NCBI GenBank assembly: GCA_045837725.1
Contig: JBEWZL010000166.1
Location: 186,001-250,000, forward strand
Length of the DNA: 64,000 nucleotides
Origin: Vermamoeba vermiformis
Taxonomy: Eukaryota
Direction of reading: 5' to 3'
In this document: positions 7,569-57,434 of the stretch, piece by piece
Layout of the letters: every line of letters begins with the position of its first letter
How positions within the stretch are numbered: position 1 is the stretch's first letter
The notes under the pieces: generated by a model
What the model saw: the letters and a program-made list of their open reading frames with translations, nothing else
Databases searched by the model: none
Told to the model about the DNA's origin: nothing
Program-made: the position numbers and the translations under genes

Positions 7569-8411
7569 CTGCCAGCAATTCAACTCTGTCAATAATTTTA
7601 AAATAATTAATAAATACTCCCATAAATAATGGTTATTTATTCGGCATTGTTTGACAAACATAAGCTGGCTCTTATTAAAATTGCTTATTTGGCCGAAAAA
7701 TAACAAGTTGTCTCAGGCCTACCTTTGATATGTACAATAAATGTTATTTACAATTGATAACTGTGCTGCGCTGTGGTTAAGATTGAATGCAGATCAAAGT
7801 AGACAGAAAAATTGAAATTGAACATTATTTAGAGAAGAACCCCCTCGACCTCCAGATGGAACTCAGTATTCTACAAGATACAACGAATACATACTTTAAC
7901 GACCGTCAGCTACTCCTGTGAGCAATGTAGGTATCGTTGTTCGCAAATCTCGGGTAGATCAAAGGTAAAGGGCTCGTTCGACGTTTCTTTGTCAATAATG
8001 CTGCACAGTATCATAGATACCATTCGAACCTCTTAAGTCCCTTTCGATAAAGCACGTGCTGATTTTCATTTTCACACACATCACCCAAATCAAATTTTTT
8101 CTTATTTCAAACGCGTGCACTGACAGATCTCACCATAAGAGTGATTGATCCAAGTCCTTATTATCCCGTCCTTGAAGAGAACTTATTTAACTGTGGATGC
8201 TGAGACTTCCTCATCGAAGGTCAGCAAATTGAATAACTCAATTATACAACACGATAGTTAGACTGTAAATTTGGGAGATATTTCTTTATATGGCCACTAG
8301 ATATTAGATATCGGTCGTTTTAAAACACAAAAAAGATTTTTGATCGGAAGAGAAAATTCATTTATTAATAATCACAATTGTATAGGGATTAAGAAATTAT
8401 AGTATTGCATA

Positions 8412-11400
8412 ATGGACAATCACATTGGCAACTATGGCTTCAAACTACGGTAATTATAATTTACAATGCCAACATAATTAAATATTAAATGCCCGAAGCG
8501 TTGTGCGGTCAACAAGGGTCACTTTTGACTATTAACGAATATTATAATAATACTTTATTATGATCAGGTTTACAGAAGAGCCGAAAACCAATTTGCGGTG
8601 CGGGGGTTACACCTGTCTAAAATTCAAAATACTCGATCACGCGGATCAAGAACTGCGACTTCAAGGATCAAATTTTGCAGGATTTATAAGCTCTACGTAA
8701 GTTTTATAATTGTTTTTGGAGTTCCCATGTTACCCATCTGAACTGTTCTAGATTTCGGCTCCGTAAAATTTTAACTAGTACGGCGGTAATAATTATTTTT
8801 ATTCGATTTGCAGTGGAATTTAATATTTTTGGCTATGAATATTTCTATTCTAGGCCTGTAAAATCAATGCAAACTCAAGTTTAATTTTTATACCGAGCTA
8901 TTTATAACCTAACATTTTACAATACAGACCCGACGGACGAGATGAAAAACAACAGAATGGGCTCGCATATAACGTTATGACGCCTCAAGGACCAGTTGCG
9001 TTGTTGATCCAACTCGGTGTGAATTTAGGCGCAGATCTGCGAGTAACAGGACCTTGCCGTAACTTGTGCTGCGAACGGGTGCTTGAAACACACGAGTCCT
9101 CATGTGATGCTTGCAAGGCCAATGCGAGTTGTCGGTACGTGAAGGGCGTGAGTTGTTGTAGGCGATTTACTCTGACACTGCAATAGGGCACGAACACGCT
9201 ATCCGACCTGTGCAGTGAACATGACCAATGAAGTCGTAATGTACATACGCGTCATGGAACAGTGCCACCATCTCGGTCTCAAATACTTCAATTTGATTGT
9301 TCGCGGCATTGACAACAAAACCAACTACAACACACTGCTCACTTCTATCAATTTCGTAGTGCACGATAATTCTCGGTTCAGTAAGTAGCCTTTCGAAATT
9401 CGCGCAATGCTTGGCAACTAAAGCATCATTTCATCAAATTTAGAAGCCAAAGAAGTCCCTGTGTCCGCTACTCCAAGCCCTCAAGTACCGACCATTGAGC
9501 GCATCAATCCGCAGTCAGGCACCTATCGCGGCAACGACACTGTTGACGTATTTGTAAATAATTATGTCCCGTAAGTATCCGCGCGATAGTGTCGAGTATA
9601 TGACTCTAACCGTTGTGTAGTGGCCTGTGGTGCAGTTTTGGCCCTATGCGAGTTCTCGAATGTACAGAAGATGCCAAGTAAGTGCCCAAATGACATTATA
9701 TATCAATGCTAATGCCTTATAGTCACCGAGTATTGATTTGCAAAACACCACCTTGTGTCCCACCACGCACGGTTGAAGTCAATTTGATCAAAGATGATGC
9801 AGTGCTCGTGCAAGCCAACAAGAAATACTACACCTACACACAAGATTACATGGATTTGTTGCATTTCTTACAATCACTCGTCCCACAAGGGCACAACCAA
9901 GATGTAATGGACTATTTGAACAATGCAGTCCAGTCAAATAACAGCTCCGATTTGAGCTCGAATAGTTTCTCCGACGAAGGCATGGATTATCAAGACCCTG
10001 ATATCTTTATCAACAGCTTTCAAACACTTCTCAAGAACAAGGCTGTCACGAACGATGAAATTCAAAAAGGTAATTGCATTGAAGAATTGCTGCTTTATTG
10101 TAAGCTACCGTACTAATCACCTTTTAGTGTTGATCTATTTTATTGATGCCGTGGCTCAAGTCCGCCACACCTTATTGAACGAAAGCCGAGAAGTGTTTGG
10201 CAATCTAACACGCGAGTCAGACATCATGACTTTAGCTCACATCGCAGCACTCAATGGCTATTTGACCGTGCTCGAACGTCTCGTGAAGGATTTCAAAGTC
10301 GATCTCAATCGTCAAGACATCGATGGCAACACTCCCATTCATTACGCTGGCATGACTGGACAGCGCAAAGTGGTCACATTTTTGGTTGACAACGGTGCCG
10401 AAGGAGACGTTAAGAATGTGTTCGGCGAAACGCCTCTTGACCTCGCTCACCGCGAGCATCACTTTGGCATCAAATTCGTACCAATGACAAAGTCACCATC
10501 AGTGCCAAACCTTGTAGCCAAGACTTCCCAAGCAACATCGAGTCCTGTTGGCTCTAAGGTCTCGAGTCTCTTGTCCTTCTTCGAGCGTAAGACCGCCGAA
10601 GCTGAAGCTGCCAAAACCGTGACTGCTGCGCCTGCTAAAGTCGCCACTCGACGTCGCAACTATGGTGCTCGTCGTTCAGTATCACAGCCCAACTCTGGTG
10701 GCAATCTTGCTAGTCCTAAAGGAAAGGTTGCAGTTGTTTCTCCGAGAGCTAAAGGTGCTGCAAAGCCGATGTCAAAACCCAGTCCCAGAACTTCAAAAGA
10801 CCAATGGACTGCTACATCTGCTGCCGAACAATGGCCTAAGGAATCTCCACCGAGCTCTCAGACGTGGTCGCAAACTAGGCCTGTTGAACAGTGGACGGAG
10901 CAAGCTGTAGTGGTTGCTCCTGGCGCAGTGGACGTGAAGACACAATGGGAAGCTAAAGATACGAAAGCTGAGCAATGGTCTGCCGAAAATAAATCAGAAG
11001 AATGGCCCAAAGATAAGCAGCCCGAGCAATGGACTGCGGAGAAGACGGAGCCGATAGAGCAATGGACTGCTGAAGCTACGAAGCCAAGCGAACAGTGGAC
11101 CCAAGATCAACCGACTGAGTGGAGTGCTGATAAGAAAACAACAGAACAATGGAGTGCCGATAAGAAAGAAGGCACCGAGCAATGGACCGCCCCTAGTGCT
11201 GAGCAATGGCCTGCCGAAAAGCAACCCACTGAGCAATGGGGTGCTGACAAGGCTACGGAACAGTGGTCTGCTGACAAGAAGGAGCCTACTGAACAATGGA
11301 CCACTCCAAGCGTGGAACAATGGCCTGCGGACAAGAAAGAGACTACGGAACAATGGTCTGCAGACAAGAAGCCCAACGAGCAATGGAGTGCTGATAAAAA

Positions 11401-14155
11401 GGAGGCTACGGAACAATGGTCTGCTGACAAGAAAGACCCTACTGAACAATGGACAGCCCCGAGCACCGAACAATGGCCAGCTGACAAGAAGCCAACTGAG
11501 CAGTGGACAGCTCCCACTGCCGAGCAATGGCCTGCCGATAAGAAGGACGCCACTGAGCAGTGGACAGCTCCGCGCACAGAACAGTGGCCTCAACAGCCTG
11601 GCAGACCATCCATGCCACGAGCACTCGCTGCACCTAGCGCCCCAAGCATGCCTAACAGAGCTCCCATTACGCCCGCTGCAGCTGCTGCTCCGCCTCCTCC
11701 TCCACCCACGGACCAGTGGACTAAAGATTCACCGAAGCGAGACTCCAGAACCAGAGCAGACACTTGGAGTGAAAAGAGCGACAGGCTCAAGGATTATATC
11801 CCTCCAAAGACAGATGCAACCGTAATGGCAGCCACCGCTGAATCACCGCCCACGGGCAGATTGCAGATCTCAAAATCGCGCGAAAATCTCAGCACTTCCC
11901 CGTCGAAGGATTGGTACGGACCTAAAAAGGCCGCAGTTGTCACTGCAAAGCGAACGACAAATCAAAATATCTTTGTCGCCACTGCGAGACAAGGCGGTGA
12001 CAGTCCTCCCAAACGTGACTCGTCACCCAACCGCAAAAACCGAAAATCAAGCAAGGGCGAGAAGCGTGAAGAGCTTGTGGGCAGTGGAAGCTCGCCACGA
12101 CGTGATTCGGTCACTAACCGACCTGAAGAGCTCAAGACTGAAGAGGACAAAGCACTGAAGCGCCGCAAGAGTGCCACTGGATTCAGCAAAATCAAGAAGA
12201 CAAAGGAAGAAAAGCTCTCAGACTTGTTTGATCGGTTACGCGAGGCTTATGAAAACGAAGATGAAGAGCGAGCGCTTGAACTCAAGGTCGAAATTGATTC
12301 ACTGAAAGAGACTATCATCAAGAAGGAAGAAAAGGAGAAGAAAAAGAAAGAGAAGGAGAACTTGAAAGAGAAAGAGAAGGAAGAGAAAGAGAAAGAAAAG
12401 CTTGCCAAGGCTCAACAGCGTAACTTGAAGAAGTCCGACAAGGAAAAGACCACTCCTCAACCCGAAGACCCTGCAGTCCAGACCACTGACGACAAGTGGC
12501 AGAAGCTCAAGTTGAAGAAGCGCAAGTCGAGCTCGAGTGGCAAAAGCAAGAAGGTTGTGAAGAACATTGGCCTCCCGTTCAACTTCCAACACCACGTGCA
12601 CGTTGACTTCAACAGCGAGCAAGGTCTGATTGGTCTGCCCTCTGAATGGATCGCCAAGTTGAAGGGTGTCGGTATTACCGAAAATGAAGCCAACAACGAC
12701 ATGGAAGCTACCATTGGTGTCCTCAACTTCCACTCGCAGTACATGGCTCAACAACAGAACCAAAGCCAAGACGTCGTTTCTCCACGTTCAGACTCCGACG
12801 AGAACAACCCCTTGGAGGTGCCAAACAGCCCAAGCGCAGAGTCCAAATGGCCTCAAGAGACGGGCAAATGGCCCCAAGAAACTGCTGAAAAGCCGACCAA
12901 CACAAATCAACCGCCAGTGCAGCCAGTGGACATCAAGGTCCCTGTCAAAGATGAGCCTGTCGCCACTGCAGAGCCACCGAAGACCACCGAGACCAAGGTT
13001 GAGAAGAAACCGTCCGTCAAAGAGCTGCCCAAACAAGCTGATCCTAACGACGAAAGTACCTGGGCTGCTACCGACCAAGAAATGATCGCTAGCAACATTG
13101 ACCTGTTGAACCAAGTCGAAGAACTGCCAGCAACGAAGATTGTTTCTATCGACGACATTGCCAAGCGTGAAGACCCTCGCGGCAGGTTCCAAAAGTTGCA
13201 AAAGATCGGAGATGGTGCTTCGGGTACCGTATACATGGGCTACGATGAAAGTGGCAGGAAGGTTGCCGTGAAAAAGATGAAGTTGAACGCGCAGAACTTG
13301 AATCTCGTGCTCTCGGAGATTGACATTATGCGCAACAGTCCTCATCCCAACATCATTTCTTTCATTGACGCCTATGTCACCGACAAAGAGCTGTGGGTCA
13401 TTATGGAGTACATGGACGGTGGCTGCCTCGCCGATATTCTCGAACAGTTTGAAGAGAACTTGCGCCTGACTGAACCTCAGATCGCCAACATTTGTCTCCA
13501 AACTCTCAAGGGCTTGATGTTCTTGCACAGCAAGCATCGTGTGCACCGCGACATTAAGAGCGACAACTTGCTGCTCGGCATGAACGGTGACGTGAAGTTA
13601 GCTGACTTTGGTTACGCCACGCAATTGACACGTGAGCGTCAAAAGCGTCAAACAGTCGTCGGCACACCGTATTGGATGGCTCCTGAAGTAATTCGAGGCA
13701 ACAAATACGATACTAAGGCAAGTAGTGCTTGATTTGTAAATTGCAACGCGCGGGCCGTGTAGCTAACGATCTCGTTATGACAGATTGACATTTGGTCCCT
13801 CGGAATTATGTTAATGGAAATGGCTGAAGGAGAACCACCATACATGGACCACCCACCTCTGCGCGCGCTGTTCTTGATCACAACTAAGGGCATTCCTCCG
13901 CTCAAAGAAGCCAACAAATGGTCGCCAGAAATGCAAGATTTCCTCGCCAAGTACGTCACGTGTCATTTATTCGTTGAAATATCTCTAACACGCGGTGACA
14001 ACAGGTGTCTCACTAAGGACCCAACTGAGCGACCCACTGCTGAGGACCTGCTCAATCATCCGTTCTTGAAGAAGTCTGGTCCTCCTTCGTGCATTGACGC
14101 GCTGATCCAAGACGCGATTAAACTGCGCAAGGAACGCATGTTAGCTTTTTGGTAA
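8412..14155 (+). CDS. COE/EBF-like DNA-binding domain + IPT/TIG + ankyrin + EQW repeats + CRIB + PAK/STE20 kinase fusion
   Basis: Exons 8412-8449, 8568-8696, 8928-9134, 9187-9380, 9444-9570, 9621-9678, 9723-10069, 10128-13717 and two 3' exons. CRIB IGLPFNFQHHVHV; kinase HRDIKSDN, DFG, GTPYWMAPE. One extra base near 9133 must be assumed. Confidence 0.85.
10799..11590 (+). repeat. Coding tandem repeat (T/A)EQW(S/T/P)ADKK, about 25-30 Trp motifs
   Basis: Visible in the translation and as degenerate GARCARTGG repeats in the DNA. Confidence 0.9.
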
Positions 14156-14477: not shown

Positions 14478-16575
14478 ATGGGTTGTTTTGGCTCTAAATC
14501 AAGCGGTGGAGATCATACCGCGGAGAATGGAGGAGAACCCAAAATCAGATCGAGAGCAACGATCCAAAACCTCCAACAATGCCGTATCAGCCGTCTTATT
14601 AGGCTTACAAGGTTGCGGCAAATCTACAATCAGAAAACAACTTCAGGTATGGAACACTATTAAATCTGTCAAAATTGCAACTGTAATTGCTGCGTATCTT
14701 TAAAATTCATACAACTTATGACACGTTTGGTATTTCCTGGTTTTACCCTCTATATTTGCTATTATAGCTGGGACTTTCACATTGCAATTCCGGCCGGGAT
14801 GCGACCGTTTTTTTTTTTTTGCATTACCAAATATTAGTTATTTTATCTCTTTCATACCAAAACGTGACATATTTAATTTACTGGGTGCATATTTTAATGG
14901 TTGACGCTGAAAAAATCGAATATTTCGGATGACAGTGTCAAACAAATTAACGAAGATTTTAATTCGTATTATCCCAAATCCACACGGAGATAAGATATAT
15001 GTTACAAATGTTTTTAGGTCCCGAATTTATCGATTTTTCCGCAACGGAAGTGTTGACACAGAATCCAGCAAATCTGAACCGTTTCTCCGGTTCATTGCAA
15101 TATAGTCTTTACACATTTAAAAATTAATGGGAATCATATGCTTATTTTAATCACCACTTTAATGTAATACGATGCTAATCGGTTAATTTTGTACAGCTCA
15201 TCTATGGAGGCACGTTTACAGTAAACGAGTTGGAAACATACAAAAACATCGTTATTATGAACTTGATTCAAGTTACCCAACAAGTAAGTTAAAACTCCTA
15301 TTTAGCCGTGATTACTAATGATATCGGTTCCAAATTTAAATTGTCATGATTCCGCCGACAATAGAATTACTTGGGTCAACATTAATATACTAAATGGATT
15401 ATTTTATACGTATATTTGATTATATTAAACTCACCTTGAACTGAAAAACAGATCTTGCAATACGCTAAAAAACAACAAGAAACTGAAATTGATGCTGAGT
15501 AAGTATTAGCGCATTATTAGTAAAATATCGATACTCGTTGATTTATGTTGTTTTCGCGCTTAATCTACCGGTAACACTCGAGTAACTTTAAATTACTATT
15601 TTAGGACGGATAGTTGCAAAATGCTGTTGGGTATCACGAACGTTTATGACTTTACTATTACACCTGAGGTCGTAGCTGCTTTGCAACAAGTCTGGAAGTA
15701 CAAACGAGTAAGTTGCGGCCATAACAATAATAATCAGTTCCGGATCTAACTGAAAATTCTAGGCACACGAGCTTATCGATGTGGCAGTGAAAGAAGACAT
15801 GAAACCAGCTGCTAACTACTTTAAAGAACATTTGAATCGAGTATTTGCCCCTGATTACATGCCCACTGAAATGGATGTGTTGTTAGTCCGTCAAAGAACA
15901 GCAGGCATCAACGCCATTGACTTTGAAATGGAAGGCAAGGACAAGAAGAGCGATTCGAAGAAGAAAATTCACCTCGTCGACGGAGGTGGTCAATTGGCTG
16001 AACGACGCAAGTGGAACACGTACATCAATGAGAACAACACCGTCATCTACGTGATTGGTATCGATGAGGTACGGCAACTAATGCTCGAATTAACTCAACT
16101 GATGCGTATACTAATGATGCCTCGCACTTAGTACGATGTCCCTGCAGCCGACAAAGAAAACAAAGTTACAACGCTAGAACACTCGCTCGAAATCTTGGAG
16201 CAGACACTGACGTACTGCAAAGAGAACAACAAGCCCGTCATTGTCTTCTTGAACAAGACTGACTTGTTTGCTGCCAAGCTCAAAAAGGTGCAGTTCTCGA
16301 CCTTCTATCCTGACTGCAAGGCCGGTGGTGAGTAACTCACTTTGACACGTGTCAAGTCCCGACTGACATTTGTGACATGTTTAGACACAGACCCTGAAGT
16401 CGGCAAGAAGTTCCTCGAAGAGAAGGTGACAGCAATTGCCAAGAAACACAACTGCGACAACTTGTACACGTACTTGACGTGCGCTCTGGACCGAGACCTC
16501 GTCAAGCGTGTGTTCGAATCAGTGCGCGATCACCTCGTCACCACACTGATCAACACTAACTTCGGCTTCGATTAA
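14478..16575 (+). CDS. Heterotrimeric G-protein alpha subunit (divergent)
   Basis: MGC myristoylation/palmitoylation start, LLGLQGCGKST, RQRTAGI, DGGGQLAERRKW, FLNKTD, TCALD; apparent extra base at 14541-14544. Confidence 0.9.
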
Positions 16576-31464: not shown

Positions 31465-33976
31465 CTACTGTTTTTGGTGCGATTGCTTTAAATTTGGGAA
31501 GCGATCTGCGATGAGAGGATAGTCGGGGCGTGATCGAGCTTGTTCGCTCATATCTCGCTGCAATTGAGCTATGTACAATGGCGTGAGTGACGATGGAGCA
31601 GGAGGTGTTTGAGCATTCAACTTCTTGGCTACTCGATGCAGTACTTGTTCTAACAGCTGTTCGCTCACGTCTGATGCGGTTGTGTTACTTGGGCTTGCGT
31701 TCTTTAGGATCTTGTAACCAATACATTAGACTCGTCGCGTATTAATGATCAATGAGTGGAACGAGTTATTACCTACCTTTCGTTTCTTGTTCGGGTGAGG
31801 GTGATCAGCAGCATACGCATCAGAGAACGGATCTTGCTCTCGCTGCTTCTCTTGTCGCTGTACATCGCGTGCTACAATGTCATTCCAATCAGTAGGCACG
31901 CCAGGGATGACGGGCAAGGGCTCGGCATTGTTGTTGTTGTTGTTCACCACTCCCGGTACGCTCGATCCACTGTGCGCGGCATAGACCCGCAAGACGTAGT
32001 CAGTGATCATCGTGCTGCTCATGGTCATCAACTCAGCGGGCAGTTGCTCCATGTGCACGAGGGCAGTGACGATGTGTCTGATGACCAGTGCGGCACTCTC
32101 CACGCCCGCATCCAGCTCCGCACTCAACGCGCGCACCCACTGCACCAAGGCGCTGTGTACCAGGGTGCGCAGAGCTCCGCTGCGATCAGTGCCGCTCTCA
32201 CTGGTGCACCACTGCACGAGTGACTTGATGCTGGGGGTGAGTGCACTCATCGTGATGGCCACGTGCGCGTTGTTGGGCAGCTGTTGTTGCAGTTCACTCG
32301 GCAGCGCGGTGTGACGCACTTGCACTTCAAAGGCCTGCACGAGTTGTTCCGCAAACTTGTGTTGCGCATCAGTCACGTGACCGGTACTGCTCAGACGCGG
32401 CAGTTGTTCCGCCATCCAGCGCTGTCGCACGAGCGGTTGAATGCGGTCCCAACAGCTCCACTGACCCGCCATGAGTGCGAGGAGTTCGGGCACGGTCATG
32501 TGGTCCAGCACGGCCTGCATCAGCCAGCTCACGGCATCGCTGCTGTCCAAGTGCGCGGCAGGGTTCATGGCACTGATCGCAGCGCTCAACGTCGCGTTCT
32601 GTTGCGGCGCGGTCATGAGCTGATTGACCGCTGAGAACATCTGATTCAACATGGCACCAGTGGGGTTGTTCATCATGTTCGCTGTGGCCGAGGGTGGCAC
32701 GGTGCCACTCGTCGTACCCGGGGTGTTGGGTGCCGCGGTGGTGTTGGCAGGTGGCACAAAGGACTGCATCATCGAGTTCATCATTTGCATCAGCGGATTG
32801 GTGTTCGTGTTCGGTGCAGTGGTGGTGGTGGCAGGTCCTGAGGGCGGAACATTGCCTTGGCGACGGATGGTGATGAGCGGAATATTCATGTGCATCGTGT
32901 TCTGTGCATTCTCTGCACCAGGGTCTGCGGTGGCAATCTGATAGACCTGCATGTGCGGGGTGACATTGGTGTTGCTGGCTGGTGGCACGTAGTTGGGATC
33001 GATCAGCGTGCCCATATTTGGCGAGACGAGTGTCAGCATGATGCCCAATTGGTGCACAATCTGTTGCAGTTGTCGGATCTTCTCCGCATTGTTGTTTTGC
33101 GTCAACTCGCTGCGACGTGTCAATGCTTGACTGACACGTGTCAAAGTAGCGCTCACACGGTCCAGGAGGTGCGTGTCATTTGACGTCTCTTGCGGGGTGC
33201 CAGGTGCCACTCCGAGCTGCGTGAGTTGTTGATCGAGCGTGCTCAAGAACTGTCGCACGTGTGCGTGTCTGTCAGGTGCGGGCACAGTGCCCACCATGCC
33301 AGGTGGATTGGCAGTGACAGTTGGTGGCACACTGCCACTCACATTCTGCGGTGCGGCATTGGGACCACCGTTGATAGTGTTCAACAACGAGCCAATGATC
33401 TGATTGATGGGTGGAGGGGTGCCATCGTTGGGAATTGAGATGGTGCCCATGACCATATTAGGAAATGCAACGAAATTTCGCTGTTGTGTGGTAGTGTTGG
33501 TGTTGGGGGCAGTGGGCGGCGTCTGATTGGTCGCTGCTTGGACTTGCGGCTTGCGCTCCACCATGTGCAGCGTCTGACCTGTCTCTAGTCCTGCAGCGAG
33601 TGTTAGCGGATCTGTGTGCAGAGTGCGCATCGAGAGCAAGAGCTGAAATTGAAAGCGCAGTACACACCGAAATCTGCAGCAGTCTTGTCATCAGTCATGG
33701 CTTTGCCTTGAAATATGAGTCTTTGAATATCTGCACTAACATTGGAGACTTGTTCGATCTTCTTTTTGAGTTCTGGAACGCTGATCTAATATTGAAAATT
33801 AAAAAATTAATTTGCAAATATGGCGGAACAATTAAATAAAGTAGTCGATAATTATGCTGTTAGCTCTTAATTGTTGAAAATGGGCAGATAATAATTCTTA
33901 CATTTTTAGGCACGGTAATGGAATAGACATTTGAATTGAGGGTTTTAACATTGATGGTGATATCTTCAGCACTCAT
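31465..33976 (-). CDS. BAG6-like ubiquitin-domain protein
   Basis: N-terminal UBL (INVKTL...QRLIFQGK...LHMVER), Pro/Asn-rich middle, DVQRQ...PFSDAY and NLS, C-terminal ADRFPN. Confidence 0.85.
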
Positions 33977-55669: not shown

Positions 55670-57434
55670 TTAATAGAAGTGGGGTTGGGGAGGTGGTCTG
55701 GCACCAGGTTGATGAGGAGGGGGAGGTGGGCGGGGTTGATGGTGATGCGGGGGAGGGGGAGGTCTGTGCGGGGGCGGGGCGTGCGGGGGTTGTGGCGGAC
55801 GATGCGCAGTGTGTGGCGGATTGGGGGGCCGTGACTGATGGTGCGGTGGTGGAGGAGGTCTGGTGCTGTGGTGTGCCGTGCCATTGCCGTTGTGATGCGA
55901 TGACAGGTGTGACGTCACGTGACTGGGCAAGTGACTGACAGGGACGTATTGACCGCCCTCCACTTTCTGCCGCTTGTTCGCTCTGTTGTCCTCGGGGTAG
56001 TGTCGCGTGTGTGCAGGAGGAGGGTGTGCGTTGTGATAGGGCGGATGTGCAGTGTGTCCGTTGTTGTGACTGTACGGCGCGTGATTGGTGTTGTTGTGCG
56101 GGTGATGGGGCCCGACAGGACCAGGACCAGTGCGTGCTGGCAGCTGTTGTTTCCTCTTGCGCGCAGTGAACTCGTGACTGGACGGGTACTTGGGCAGCTC
56201 TGACGGGTCACACGGCATGGGCTCGGACCAAAAATAGTCGCTGTCCAGTGCCTGCGAGCACGTGATGCGCTTCTTGGGATCGAGCGTGAGCATGCGCGAG
56301 ATGAGATCGAGGGCCTTGGTGTCAAAGTTGCTGAACACTTCGCGCAGTCGTGGTCGGTAGCTCTTGGCAGGACAGAACTTGTCGTACCACACCAAGTTCT
56401 TGGCGTCGCTCCAGTTCTCTTCAGTCGGTGAGCCACACAGGCGGAAGATGAGATCGAGCTGATCCAGTTCAGTCTTGCCGGGGAATATCGGCTTCTTATA
56501 GAGCAGTTCCGCCATAATGCAGCCCACGCTCCACATGTCCACTGCAGGGCCGTAAGAGTTGGCACCGAGCAGCAGTTCAGGCGGGCGGTACCAGAGCGTG
56601 ATGACGTTGTTGGTGTAGTTGCCGCCCTTGGAACTGACGGGCCGCGCGAGTCCAAAGTCCGCGAGCTTGAGCACACCTTGGTTGTTGATCAGCAAGTTCG
56701 AGGCCTTGATGTCGCGGTGCAGCACGTTGTTGCTGTGCAGATAGTGCAGACCTTCGAGCAGCTGCTTCATGTAGCACTTGATGTGCTCGGGCTTGAACCA
56801 CTGCGCATTGGGGGCTTTGAGTGTCGGCGAGTCCAACAGCCCTGCTAGATCGTGATCCATAAACTCGAACACGAGGTAGATGCTGCCCTTCTTCACTGGA
56901 TCTCCTTCTGTACCTGCACGCGCGCGTTAGAATACTTATACTATTACACCGGAACTCGAGAATAAGAATTACAAAGCGCTAATCTGCTTTTGAAAGAAAA
57001 TTCTTACCTTTTGACGTGACGATTTCTTTGAGCTTTATTATATTCTTATGATTCAACTCTTTCAATATTTTTATTTCTCTGATGGCTGTAATTGGGAACT
57101 GCACAGAGAATAACAAATTACCAAAATGAGCATAAAAAAGCGTGAGTGATCCAATCTAACTTACACCGTCTTTCTCATTTTCCATTCGAATTCTTTTGAG
57201 TGCTACTATCTCATTTGTTATTTTACATCGAGCTTTGTACACTTGTCTACGGAGGCAAAGTATTATTTATTAAATTTTATTATTCTGGATGGAAAATTTT
57301 AAAATAATGACGAGGCAATCAAATAATTACCCATAAGTTCCTTCTCCAATTTGTTCTATTTTTTCATATATATCTACAGTGCGTGTGCCCCATTCAGGAT
57401 CTTGATTATCTTTATTATTGTTTGTGGACTGCAT
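55670..57434 (-). CDS. CTD kinase, PITAIRE-type CDK (CDK9/CDKC/CDK12 group)
   Basis: [37 protein letters not shown]; His/Pro-rich tail. Confidence 0.95.

Follow-up and report, generated by a model that had tools for sequence, protein, structure and literature searches.

The locus at 8412..14155 of the window (the whole stretch of 64,000 nucleotides analysed here; all coordinates are on its + strand) raises the question of whether a COE/EBF-type DNA-binding domain (DBD) and a p21-activated kinase (PAK) are parts of the same protein, as an earlier note on this DNA had claimed. The locus is one gene, with one mRNA and one polypeptide of 1,668 aa. The coding region, assigned by script splicing of the window, RNA joints and orthologue colinearity, consists of 10 exons (CDS of 5,007 nt, from ATG at 8412 to TAA at 14153-14155, without internal stop). 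All introns are of the GT-AG type except one GC-AG intron; eight of the nine are 45-118 nt in length and the remaining one is 231 nt, and most of them have a CTAAC-like motif ahead of the acceptor and lack a pyrimidine tract. When spliced RNA contigs were placed on the window, their joints coincided exactly with the modelled positions for introns 1-8 (run X4, 8/9 introns; X18, 3/9; X19, 2/9), and a 2,399-nt contig (X4 record 15) joined exons 2-8, reaching 11304. Intron 9 was supported at the RNA level by X4 alone, in which a loose end at 13952 reads into exon 10.

Exon 1 (8412..8449; joint 8448>8567 (cut +1), X18/X4) begins with M1 and ends with the second base of the R13 codon, and an in-frame TAG (8400-8402) lies shortly 5' of it. 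A possible 5'-UTR intron (GT..AG; 8220..8385) is weakly indicated by one X18 contig, the loose end of which at 8384 matches the window at ~8204-8217; a possible non-coding upstream exon would then end near 8219. The DBD starts in exon 2 (8568..8696; joint 8696>8928, X18/X4) with N-L-R at residues 21-23, continues in exon 3 (8928..9134; joint 9133>9186 (cut +1), X18/X19/X4) with its middle part including the zinc knuckle, and has its C-terminal third, with V-V-H-D-N-S-R at residues 182-188, in exon 4 (9187..9380; joint 9380>9444, X4). The DBD-IPT linker and first IPT strands (exon 5, 9444..9570; joint 9570>9621, X4) and the middle of the IPT domain (exon 6, 9621..9677; joint 9677>9723, X4) were assigned with the EBF1 alignment, and exon 7 (9723..10069; joint 10067>10126 (cut +2), X19/X4) holds the end of the IPT domain (residue ~290, nt 9840) and a helix-rich linker (residues 291-366). 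Exon 8 (10128..13717; 1,196 stop-free codons) spans the ankyrin repeats through to the N-lobe and activation loop of the kinase. The GC-AG intron is intron 8 (13718..13783, 66 nt; X4 joint 13715>13782 with 2 ambiguous letters), spliced identically in P0010 and in the orthologue P0093. It is followed by exon 9 (13784..13950; splice model, RNA and P0093) and by exon 10 with the stop codon (14005..14155; the X4 loose end, and a junction matched in P0010/P0093). All peptide strings quoted in the earlier note were found on the + strand where it had placed them; its exon 3/exon 4 junction, '(G)TRTRYP', was wrong and actually reads ...ASC-R-ARTRYP.

Two transcript-type orthologues from a relative (P0093 and P0099, 1,641 aa each; source contigs of 5,133 and 5,268 nt) were colinear with the model (1-1668 versus 1-1641, 81% identity), and the residues at every exon junction, the start Met and the C-terminus were identical. 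P0010 (1,374 aa) is spliced and covers the IPT domain through the stop, and P0009 (an NCBI-sourced ORF) was 96% identical to exon 8. Identity to P0093 was 94.4% for the DBD, 95.4% for the IPT domain, 97.2% for the kinase and 70.6% for the middle region, and dN/dS was 0.05 for 168 codons of exons 3-5 in comparison with L002. Judged from these sequences, the DBD and the IPT domain are under strong purifying selection.

The COE profile and structure-sequence tests were performed with P0093, whose DBD and IPT domain show 94-95% identity to those of the window model. A phmmer search of PDB with its N-terminal 389 aa matched EBF1 (3mlp_A) with an E-value of 2.9e-16 (62.7 bits) in a single stretch across both domains (query 11-290, chain 28-315), and COE1/COE3 were the best 6 of the 10 PDB matches listed; DBD-only chains were matched at 3.8e-8 and 4.5e-8, and IPT-only chains at 0.007-0.0099. 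Pfam COE1_DBD matched the N-terminus alone with 27.1 bits (cut-off, 27; E-value, 3.6e-6), the match covering positions 35-224 of the 231 in the profile, and scored 23.5 bits, under the same cut-off, on full-length P0093. TIG scored 17.1 bits on the N-terminus (cut-off, 20.9), COE1_HLH was absent from the Pfam results for P0093 up to an E-value of 10, and single exons and in-frame intron read-throughs of the window gene gave no COE match. Identity between the head and EBF1 was ~26% (73/280 aligned residues, counted by eye), and the COE-type domain here is the most divergent among those found. On the strength of the EBF1, DBD-only and COE1_DBD matches, the claimed N-terminal order of a COE/EBF-type DBD and then an IPT domain was upheld, and we confidently assign the N-terminal 290 aa to a very divergent DBD of this type with an HCCC knuckle, followed by a COE-type IPT domain. 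Weak matches to Pfam DBB (E-values, 0.05 and 0.044; 13.9-14.1 bits, beneath the cut-off of 22.2) were found over the end of the IPT domain and the first helices in exon 7; the helices of the linker were seen only in a predicted model with an unusable pLDDT of 31.8.

The zinc knuckle (H111-x3-C115-x2-C118-x5-C124; 14 residues, 9091..9132), located with a regular expression and the EBF1 alignment, has its ligands aligned with H157/C161/C164/C170 of EBF1, the knuckle of which is described, in the available excerpts of the EBF1 literature, as a 14-residue HCCC motif. The pattern H-x3-C-x2-C-x5-C occurred a single time among the 127,996 residues of the six-frame translation of the window. By chance it arose in 0/20,000 shuffles of the protein and, when its Cys-rich first 200 aa were shuffled, in 9/20,000. 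R173, H235 (aligned with H184), N237, S238 and N61-L62-R63 (aligned with the N-L-R of exon 2) of EBF1 were retained in the P0093 alignment and K239 was changed to Arg; basic K119, R125, R127 and R129 lie in or after the knuckle. The position of EBF1 Arg-163, called 'absolutely required' for DNA binding in the excerpts at hand (R163A abolishes binding), is Ala in the head, which also carries N, A, A and T where EBF1 has K167, K168, N172 and N174, respectively. The knuckle had been described as fully conserved; this holds for the four zinc ligands, but 5/5 residues linked by mutagenesis to DNA binding are replaced, which we counted against a DNA-binding head.

At the other end, the CRIB, or p21-Rho-binding domain (residues 1180-1235, 12566..12733; Pfam PBD, 6.3e-14), gave a 24.9-bit alignment with positions 85-163 of the PAK2 chain, and the protein kinase domain (residues ~1387-1640, 13187..14068, split by introns 8 and 9) matched Pfam Pkinase at 1.6e-52 (2.3e-73 on P0093), the best 20 PDB matches being PAK2, PAK1 and PAK3 (E-values, 2.6e-57 to 1.8e-49). 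The catalytic motifs (HRD, DFG, APE, the ATP-binding Lys and the activation-loop Thr) are in place. The segment adjoining the CRIB/PBD is the autoinhibitory switch in PAK1-3, and by these matches the C-terminal part is securely classified as a group-I-type PAK with CRIB/PBD and adjoining segment. Two to three ankyrin repeats (residues ~404-478, 10238..10462; Pfam Ank_2, 1.6e-11; Ank_4, 1.4e-13) precede a low-complexity linker of ~700 aa between the two halves. Sequence inspection revealed 27 short Trp-ended repeats (residues ~590-853, 10796..11590; units of 4-18 aa, mostly 8-11 aa, mostly terminating in E-Q-W), which are the fastest-evolving part (middle region, 70.6% versus 94-98% for the domains, P0093). 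A Lys/Glu-rich stretch (12206..12463; 26% E, 26% K by composition) precedes a K-K-R-K cluster (residue 1163); the latter and the basic clusters at residues 1002, 1044 and 1104 could act as nuclear localisation signals. The claim that the COE-IPT head shares one transcript and ORF with the ankyrin repeats, CRIB and PAK kinase was borne out by the RNA joints, P0093/P0099, and the Pfam and PDB matches.

We favour, with moderate confidence, a Rho-GTPase-gated PAK with a dimerising, probably DNA-binding COE-IPT-helix-ankyrin head in one polypeptide. Rac/Cdc42-GTP on the CRIB would free the kinase, as in other group I PAKs, and the head would set the location and oligomeric state of kinase release. 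The head most likely dimerises, like the IPT domain and helices of EBF1 and BCAP, and most likely has a specific ligand, probably DNA; given the replaced minor-groove residues in the knuckle, the mode of recognition would differ from that of EBF1. This would yield a kinase gated by Rho GTPases and tethered at particular sites, or a DNA-binding head under the control of its own kinase. The usual site of PAK action is the cortex or the cytosol, and this was counted against the favoured explanation together with the non-DNA-binding TIG of BCAP, the COE1_DBD score below the cut-off on the full protein, the missing COE1_HLH, the sub-cut-off TIG and the lack of COE matches from single exons and read-throughs. 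The available part of PMC7128310 provides a precedent for an IPT domain and helices as a dimeriser beside ankyrin repeats in a signalling protein.

It is possible, though on the unlikely side, that the COE-derived head no longer binds DNA and is a dimerisation or docking scaffold of a cytoplasmic PAK, like BCAP/BANK1/Dof with their DBB and ankyrin repeats. The replacement of Arg-163 and four more DNA-binding knuckle residues and the weak DBB matches are consistent with this scaffold, as is BCAP itself, described in the same excerpt as cytosolic and non-DNA-binding, with an EBF1-like TIG and then helices and ankyrin repeats (PMC7128310). However, BCAP retains the TIG only, whereas here the entire DBD is present with the four zinc ligands, H235, N237, S238, K239-to-R, R173 and N-L-R; the DBD evolves as slowly as the kinase, and the basic residues in and after the knuckle persist.

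Gene density and short introns such as those of the window are in keeping with a microbial eukaryote. Were the contig from a compact-genome animal, the COE-type domain would be a fast-evolving animal paralogue, uninformative on COE outside animals; introns of ~50 nt occur in some small animals too, and the animal-sounding Pfam families FIBP and Wntless-like TM were found among the window ORFs. We consider this improbable, and the host is probably not an animal: the head is ~26% identical to EBF1, and animal COE is remarkably conserved and single-copy outside vertebrates according to an excerpt of PMC2394523; the intron lengths, the CTAAC-like motif and the absent pyrimidine tract, the dense genes with recognisable housekeeping families throughout the 64 kb, and the occurrence of the sequence in metagenomes of water and roots, as well as in runs under at least eight different organism labels, argue likewise. 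These points are all circumstantial, and the 64-kb window contains no rRNA or tRNA.

A precursor from which regulated proteolysis, in the style of NF-kB p105/p100 or Spt23/Mga2, releases a DBD-IPT(-ankyrin) factor from the kinase remainder is very doubtful. The DBD-IPT-ankyrin order is as in p105/Relish, Spt23/Mga2 and CAMTA, an ESM Atlas cluster suggested an SPT23/MGA2 DBD and TIG (0.83, under the 0.9 level and a lead only), and the long low-complexity linker is a possible cleavage region; yet no hydrophobic or membrane anchor was found (best 19-residue Kyte-Doolittle mean, 1.2), so that there is no Spt23-type membrane tether, no Gly-rich stop element was seen in the 1,668-aa sequence, and RHD, SPT23_MGA2_DBD and CG-1 gave no Pfam match to P0093 at E-values of 10 or less. 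The earlier suggestion of p105- or Spt23-like processing is weakened by the missing anchor and stop element. That the 5' exons and the kinase are two neighbouring genes has a negligible probability and is already contradicted: none of the placed RNA contigs spans the whole gene, gaps remaining at repeats (11304-11372 and 12222-12404), but the open frame of exon 8 is continuous across both gaps, P0093 and P0099 are full-length, and P0010 extends from the IPT domain through to the stop.

Compared with known systems, the Rho-GTPase-gated PAK that we favour resembles EBF1 (PDB 3MLP, 3LYR) in its HCCC knuckle at the aligned position of an N-terminal DBD, in the IPT/TIG directly after it and in ~280 colinear residues, with the DNA-facing N-L-R, R173, H235, N237 and S238 in common; it differs in its low identity and the five replaced knuckle residues. 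Unlike animal COE, it has no Pfam-detectable HLH and no C-terminal transactivation region, and has instead ankyrin repeats, the linker, a CRIB and a kinase. With group I PAKs (PAK1-3; fungal Ste20/Cla4; amoebozoan PAKs) it shares the CRIB/PBD and adjoining segment and a catalytically intact STE20-group kinase, but it has ~1,180 aa upstream of the PBD, and no PAK with a COE-type DBD, IPT domain or ankyrin repeats was found among known PAKs. Like BCAP/BANK1/Dof, it combines IPT/TIG, helices and ankyrin repeats in a signalling protein, and the BCAP TIG is described in the excerpt as closest to that of EBF1 (PMC7128310); unlike here, the BCAP TIG is preceded by a TIR rather than a DBD and BCAP has no kinase, and the DBB match here is sub-cut-off. 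The order of DBD (Ig-fold or other), IPT and ankyrin modules recalls NF-kB p105/p100/Relish, Spt23/Mga2 and CAMTA, and the EBF DBD is structurally Rel-like according to part of PMC2923972; the gene product differs from p105, Spt23/Mga2 and CAMTA in the unmatched RHD, SPT23_MGA2_DBD and CG-1 profiles and the missing membrane anchor. We found no published description of a COE DBD-IPT, ankyrin repeats and a Rho-GTPase-regulated PAK in one protein. To our knowledge, p105/p100/Relish, Spt23/Mga2 and CAMTA have no kinase domain, and the gene product described here is a new domain architecture.

The gene at 8412-14155 on the forward strand was modelled by joining its exons at canonical splice sites, which gave an open coding sequence of 5,007 nt (1,668 aa) in ten exons, all on the same strand: exon 1 (8412-8449), exon 2 (8568-8696), exon 3 (8928-9134), exon 4 (9187-9380), exon 5 (9444-9570), exon 6 (9621-9677), exon 7 (9723-10069), exon 8 (10128-13717), exon 9 (13784-13950), and exon 10 (14005-14155). 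The introns (introns 1-9) are 118, 231, 52, 63, 50, 45, 58, 66, and 54 nt long, respectively; eight have GT-AG borders, and intron 8 (13718-13783) has GC-AG borders that are backed by an RNA joint and by the spliced orthologues. The peptide strings quoted in the earlier note were all found on the forward strand at 8551-10116; the sole correction concerned the string at the exon 3/4 junction, the correct reading of which is ...ASC-R-ARTRYP. At least part of the stretch was contained in 20 of the 24 listed public sequencing runs (10 studies), and four runs were mapped for RNA support: X18 and X19 are RNA-Seq, and the RNA label of X4 is only a guess, yet spliced contigs were present in it; the fourth, the raw-read RNA run X24, yielded no mapped reads. 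Joints for introns 1-8 were found at the modelled bases in X4 contigs, and three and two of these joints were also found in X18 and X19, respectively; all the support for intron 9 comes from a loose end in X4 at 13952, whose sequence continues into exon 10. A 2,399-nt X4 contig links exons 2-8 and reaches 11304. The RNA contigs were interrupted at internal repeats (11304-11372 and 12222-12404), and exon 8 is a single 1,196-codon frame that spans both breaks. A loose end in a single X18 contig suggests an intron of 166 nt in the 5' UTR (8220-8385), in which case the transcription start would be upstream of 8200.

In the protein search with exon 8, the whole query was covered by two of the 80 matches, namely P0009 (an ORF call, 96% identical) and P0010 (76% identical, 1,374 aa); the others matched the kinase or the ankyrin repeats only, over 17% of the query or less. 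P0010 reads through the exon 7/8, 8/9, and 9/10 junctions, and its 90% cluster has 16 members, including P0093 and P0099, which are 1,641-aa orthologues from a relative. Since the source contigs of these two (5,133 and 5,268 nt) are too short to contain introns, we infer that they are transcript assemblies. The Met start, the C-terminus, and the residues at every junction of P0093 and P0099 agree with the window model, and residues 1-1668 of the model are colinear with residues 1-1641 of the orthologue (81% identity). Three metagenome contigs of a further relative (L001-L003; 3 passed of 333 pattern matches) have an exon layout that matches that of the window gene from exon 1 into the kinase. 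The candidate explanation that two genes had been artificially joined was ruled out for practical purposes by the RNA joints, the unbroken exon 8, and the full-length orthologues.

Comparison of the window with L002 over 168 codons (exons 3-5) gave a dN/dS of 0.05 (pS 0.62, pN 0.065). Identity to P0093 was 94.4% for the DBD, 95.4% for the IPT domain, 98.5% for the CRIB, 97.2% for the kinase, and 70.6% for the middle region; the head is constrained as tightly as the kinase. The orthologues are annotated as 'hypothetical protein' in the JGI source. Because the cluster representative P0010 lacks the N-terminus and the full-length orthologues are non-representative members, the COE-type head is invisible in searches of representative sets, and further relatives may be masked likewise by their cluster representatives. 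Within the 64-kb window, no paralogue of the head was found elsewhere with tblastn (best other match, E 2.8). A separate observation concerns a series of Trp-ended repeats at 10796-11590 (forward strand; residues ~590-853), which consists of 27 units of 4-18 aa (most of 8-11 aa, most ending in E-Q-W) with types that include S-A-D-K-K-x-x-T-E-Q-W and T-A-P-x-x-E-Q-W. The motif [EQT][EQ]W occurs 25 times in the window protein and 19 times in P0093; no other part of the protein evolves as fast as the repeat region, in which the RNA contigs break. To our knowledge, no family with this repeat has been described.

As for the surroundings of the gene, a new ORF starts at 14478 (forward strand), ~320 nt past the stop codon, with M-G-C-F-G-S, which resembles the acylation motif at the N-terminus of a G-protein alpha subunit; the Pfam families matched by the window's ORFs include G-alpha (3.4e-21). 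Of 55 non-overlapping ORFs with at least 110 aa in the window, three belong to the present gene and were left out, and a Pfam comparison of the other 52 gave 38 families at E ≤ 1e-4. The 25 listed are all ordinary eukaryotic genes, such as ATG16 with WD40, mitochondrial-type EF-Ts, AspRS with a GAD domain, ESF1, ZNF598-like RING, PIG-L, Use1, Serinc, FIBP, a Wntless-like transmembrane protein, and glycerate-kinase-like MOFRL/DUF4147. A second protein kinase lies at 55673-56926 (reverse strand), and a 653-aa ORF at 31729-33687 (reverse strand) had no Pfam match; rRNA, tRNA, and Rfam searches gave no match within the window. Runs labelled with at least eight different coded organism names contained near-identical sequence, as did water, aquatic, and root metagenomes, a pattern suggestive of a widespread microbe, free-living or associated, that is a minor component of the libraries of other organisms.

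The C-terminal half of the protein is, by sequence comparison, a group-I-type PAK module. Pfam searches of the window detected Ank_4 (1.4e-13), PBD/CRIB (E 6.3e-14, 52.5 bits with the cut-off at 21.3), and Pkinase (E 1.6e-52; 2.3e-73 on P0093). The best 20 PDB matches were PAK2, PAK1, and PAK3 (E 2.6e-57 to 1.8e-49), followed by PAK4-7 and MST-type kinases, and the PBD region was aligned to chain positions 85-163 of PAK2. Both the alignment and the translation show the HRD, the DFG, the Thr of the activation loop, and the APE.

The earlier note had read the N-terminal part as a COE/EBF-type DBD followed by an IPT domain. This was examined with the N-terminal 389 aa of P0093 as a stand-in for the window protein. 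Against PDB sequences, the segment matched the animal COE factor structure, mouse EBF1 (3mlp_A), with E 2.9e-16 (62.7 bits) in one stretch that covers the DBD and the IPT domain together (query 11-290, chain 28-315); 73 of the 280 aligned residues, counted from the alignment midline, are identical (~26%). The DBD-only chains 3lyr_A and 3mln_A matched with E 3.8e-8 and 4.5e-8, respectively, and the IPT-only chains of EBF1/EBF3 (3mqi, 3muj, and 3n50) with E 0.007-0.0099 at query 204-290; the IPT domain lies directly C-terminal to the DBD and is aligned to that of EBF1/EBF3. The best six of the ten listed PDB matches were COE1 or COE3, and the other four had E ≥ 0.2. In Pfam, COE1_DBD (PF16422) was detected with 27.1 bits against a cut-off of 27 (E 3.6e-6, positions 35-224 of the 231 in the profile), and no other DBD family was found at E ≤ 10; TIG had 17.1 bits against a cut-off of 20.9 (E 0.0055). 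On the full 1,641-aa P0093, COE1_DBD had 23.5 bits (E 4.6e-5) against the same cut-off of 27, so that routine annotation probably misses the domain. No COE1_HLH was found after the IPT domain in Pfam at E ≤ 10, and the 3mlp alignment ends with the IPT domain; the 76 residues that follow gave a weak match to DBB, the TIG-helix domain of BCAP, BANK1, and Dof (E 0.05), and helices after residue 290 were seen only in an AlphaFold2 model of mean pLDDT 31.8 (7-row alignment), which is too poor for use. Judged from these comparisons, the head passes the sequence tests for COE homology, and its profile score lies right at the cut-off of Pfam. The colinear match to EBF1 upholds the proposed DBD and IPT domain, and the COE1_DBD score, above the cut-off for the N-terminus and below it for the full protein, is borderline. 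Two features of the family failed, the HLH and the residues of the zinc knuckle that contact DNA; we file the head as a divergent COE-type domain and not as a COE transcription factor.

Exons 2-5 used singly had no COE match in Pfam, and exons 2, 3, 4, and 7 used singly had no COE/EBF match among PDB sequences, since single exons are too short for so divergent a domain. When the in-frame introns 2, 4, and 6 were read through (P0006-P0008), Pfam and PDB gave no COE match, only weak ones to DBB and RIH_assoc. Exon 3 against the longer lengths of 5.8 billion proteins left one of 30 candidates (P0001, an ORF fragment), and against 1.84 billion representatives it gave four matches at E ≤ 0.001, one being a near-identical fragment (P0002); the three others were judged on reading to be spurious similarity of repeats or low-complexity sequence. 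A search of longer proteins with residues 1-203 of P0093 gave 343 candidates, none at E ≤ 10; this is weak evidence for the absence of relatives because the full-length orthologues are hidden in the cluster of P0010. In the ESM Atlas, exon 3 had no usable match, and the leads for P0093 1-300 were all below 0.9 (RHD 0.88, COE-A 0.85, and SPT23/MGA2 0.83).

Residues were compared with EBF1 by adding 23 to the 3mlp chain index, which reproduces the residue names in the EBF papers. EBF1 has an HCCC zinc knuckle, a 14-residue motif, and the available text of PMC2923972 and PMC5411688 describes Arg-163 as 'absolutely required' (R163A abolishes DNA binding), discusses the roles of Arg-163, Lys-167, Lys-168, and Asn-172, as well as of Asn-174, in DNA binding, and treats His-235 as important for DNA interaction, with mention also of Lys-239. 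In the window model and P0093, H111, C115, C118, and C124 correspond to the zinc ligands H157, C161, C164, and C170 of EBF1; the 14-residue H-x3-C-x2-C-x5-C is unique in the six frames of the window and was found in none of 20,000 protein shuffles. The knuckle had been called fully conserved; this holds for the four ligands but not for the DNA-contact residues, none of the five of which is kept (Arg-163 to A117, K167 to N121, K168 to A122, N172 to A126, and N174 to T128), although the knuckle stays basic through K119, R125, R127, and R129. Elsewhere, N61-L62-R63, R173, H235, N237, and S238 of EBF1 are kept; H184, N186, and S187 are the counterparts of the last three, R188 stands conservatively for K239, and D185 takes the place of N236. 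The residues that define the fold and those of the major-groove type look preserved, unlike the DNA contacts made by the knuckle itself.

One polypeptide was shown to carry a COE-type DBD-IPT head together with a group-I-type CRIB-kinase tail, and the structural claim that a COE-type head is joined to a PAK is supported. In group I PAKs, a segment adjoining the CRIB holds the kinase off, and Rac/Cdc42-GTP releases it. By analogy, the kinase of the present protein would be restrained by the segment that flanks its CRIB until Rac/Cdc42-GTP releases it. In the available text of PMC7128310, the IPT domain and the helices that follow it dimerise in EBF1 and BCAP, and BCAP, which is a cytosolic adaptor, has ankyrin repeats after them. 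We lean, on such analogies, towards a head that would dimerise the protein and target it to a specific ligand, probably DNA, in a mode other than that of EBF. The main alternative is that the head is a pure scaffold in which DNA binding was lost; the replaced contacts of the knuckle speak for it and the basic and major-groove-type residues that are kept speak against it, and we regard it as somewhat unlikely.

An animal origin of the contig was also considered and appears improbable. The family itself is treated as animal-only in the literature searched: in the available text of PMC2394523, COE/EBF is reported absent in fungi, plants, protozoans, and Monosiga, and in that of PMC6040629, 'Transcription factor COE 1-4' is listed in a table where animal-specific gene families are treated. 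The introns are short with CTAAC-like motifs, housekeeping genes are dense, the sequence is present in water and root metagenomes as well as in the many differently labelled runs (at least eight coded names), and the divergence from the COE proteins of animals, which are otherwise highly conserved, is extreme; these features fit a microbial eukaryote. The proteolytic processing proposed in the earlier note, similar to that of p105 or Spt23, has the domain order in its favor and nothing beyond, and we give it little credence because there is no hydrophobic anchor (best 19-residue Kyte-Doolittle mean of 1.2, with the top windows in the DBD and the ankyrin repeats) and no match to RHD or SPT23_MGA2_DBD in Pfam at E ≤ 10, the ESM Atlas leads for these staying under 0.9.

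In the main text of the full-text literature, which was covered in part, no report was found of a COE-type domain in any organism other than animals, nor of a fusion of COE with PAK, and, in full-text literature likewise covered in part, no published architecture was found that joins a DNA-binding-type head to a CRIB-PAK kinase. Located in a probable non-animal, a COE-type DBD-IPT that is ~26% identical to EBF1 and under strong purifying selection would shift the point at which the fold arose or bring a transfer to light. The head also offers a far outgroup for separating the residues for the zinc-knuckle fold from those for EBF-type DNA recognition, and the Ala that it naturally carries at position 163 already provides a test of this question. 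The fusion makes it directly testable whether one protein can read Rho-GTPase signalling out at DNA. More tentatively, the COE DBD-IPT may be older than animals and may survive here in IPT-ankyrin surroundings that resemble those in CAMTA, Spt23, and BCAP, wired to a Rac/Cdc42-gated kinase so that a Rho GTPase would act on specific DNA sites through one protein; the COE factors of animals would then be no animal invention, having descended from, or sharing an ancestor with, such a protein.
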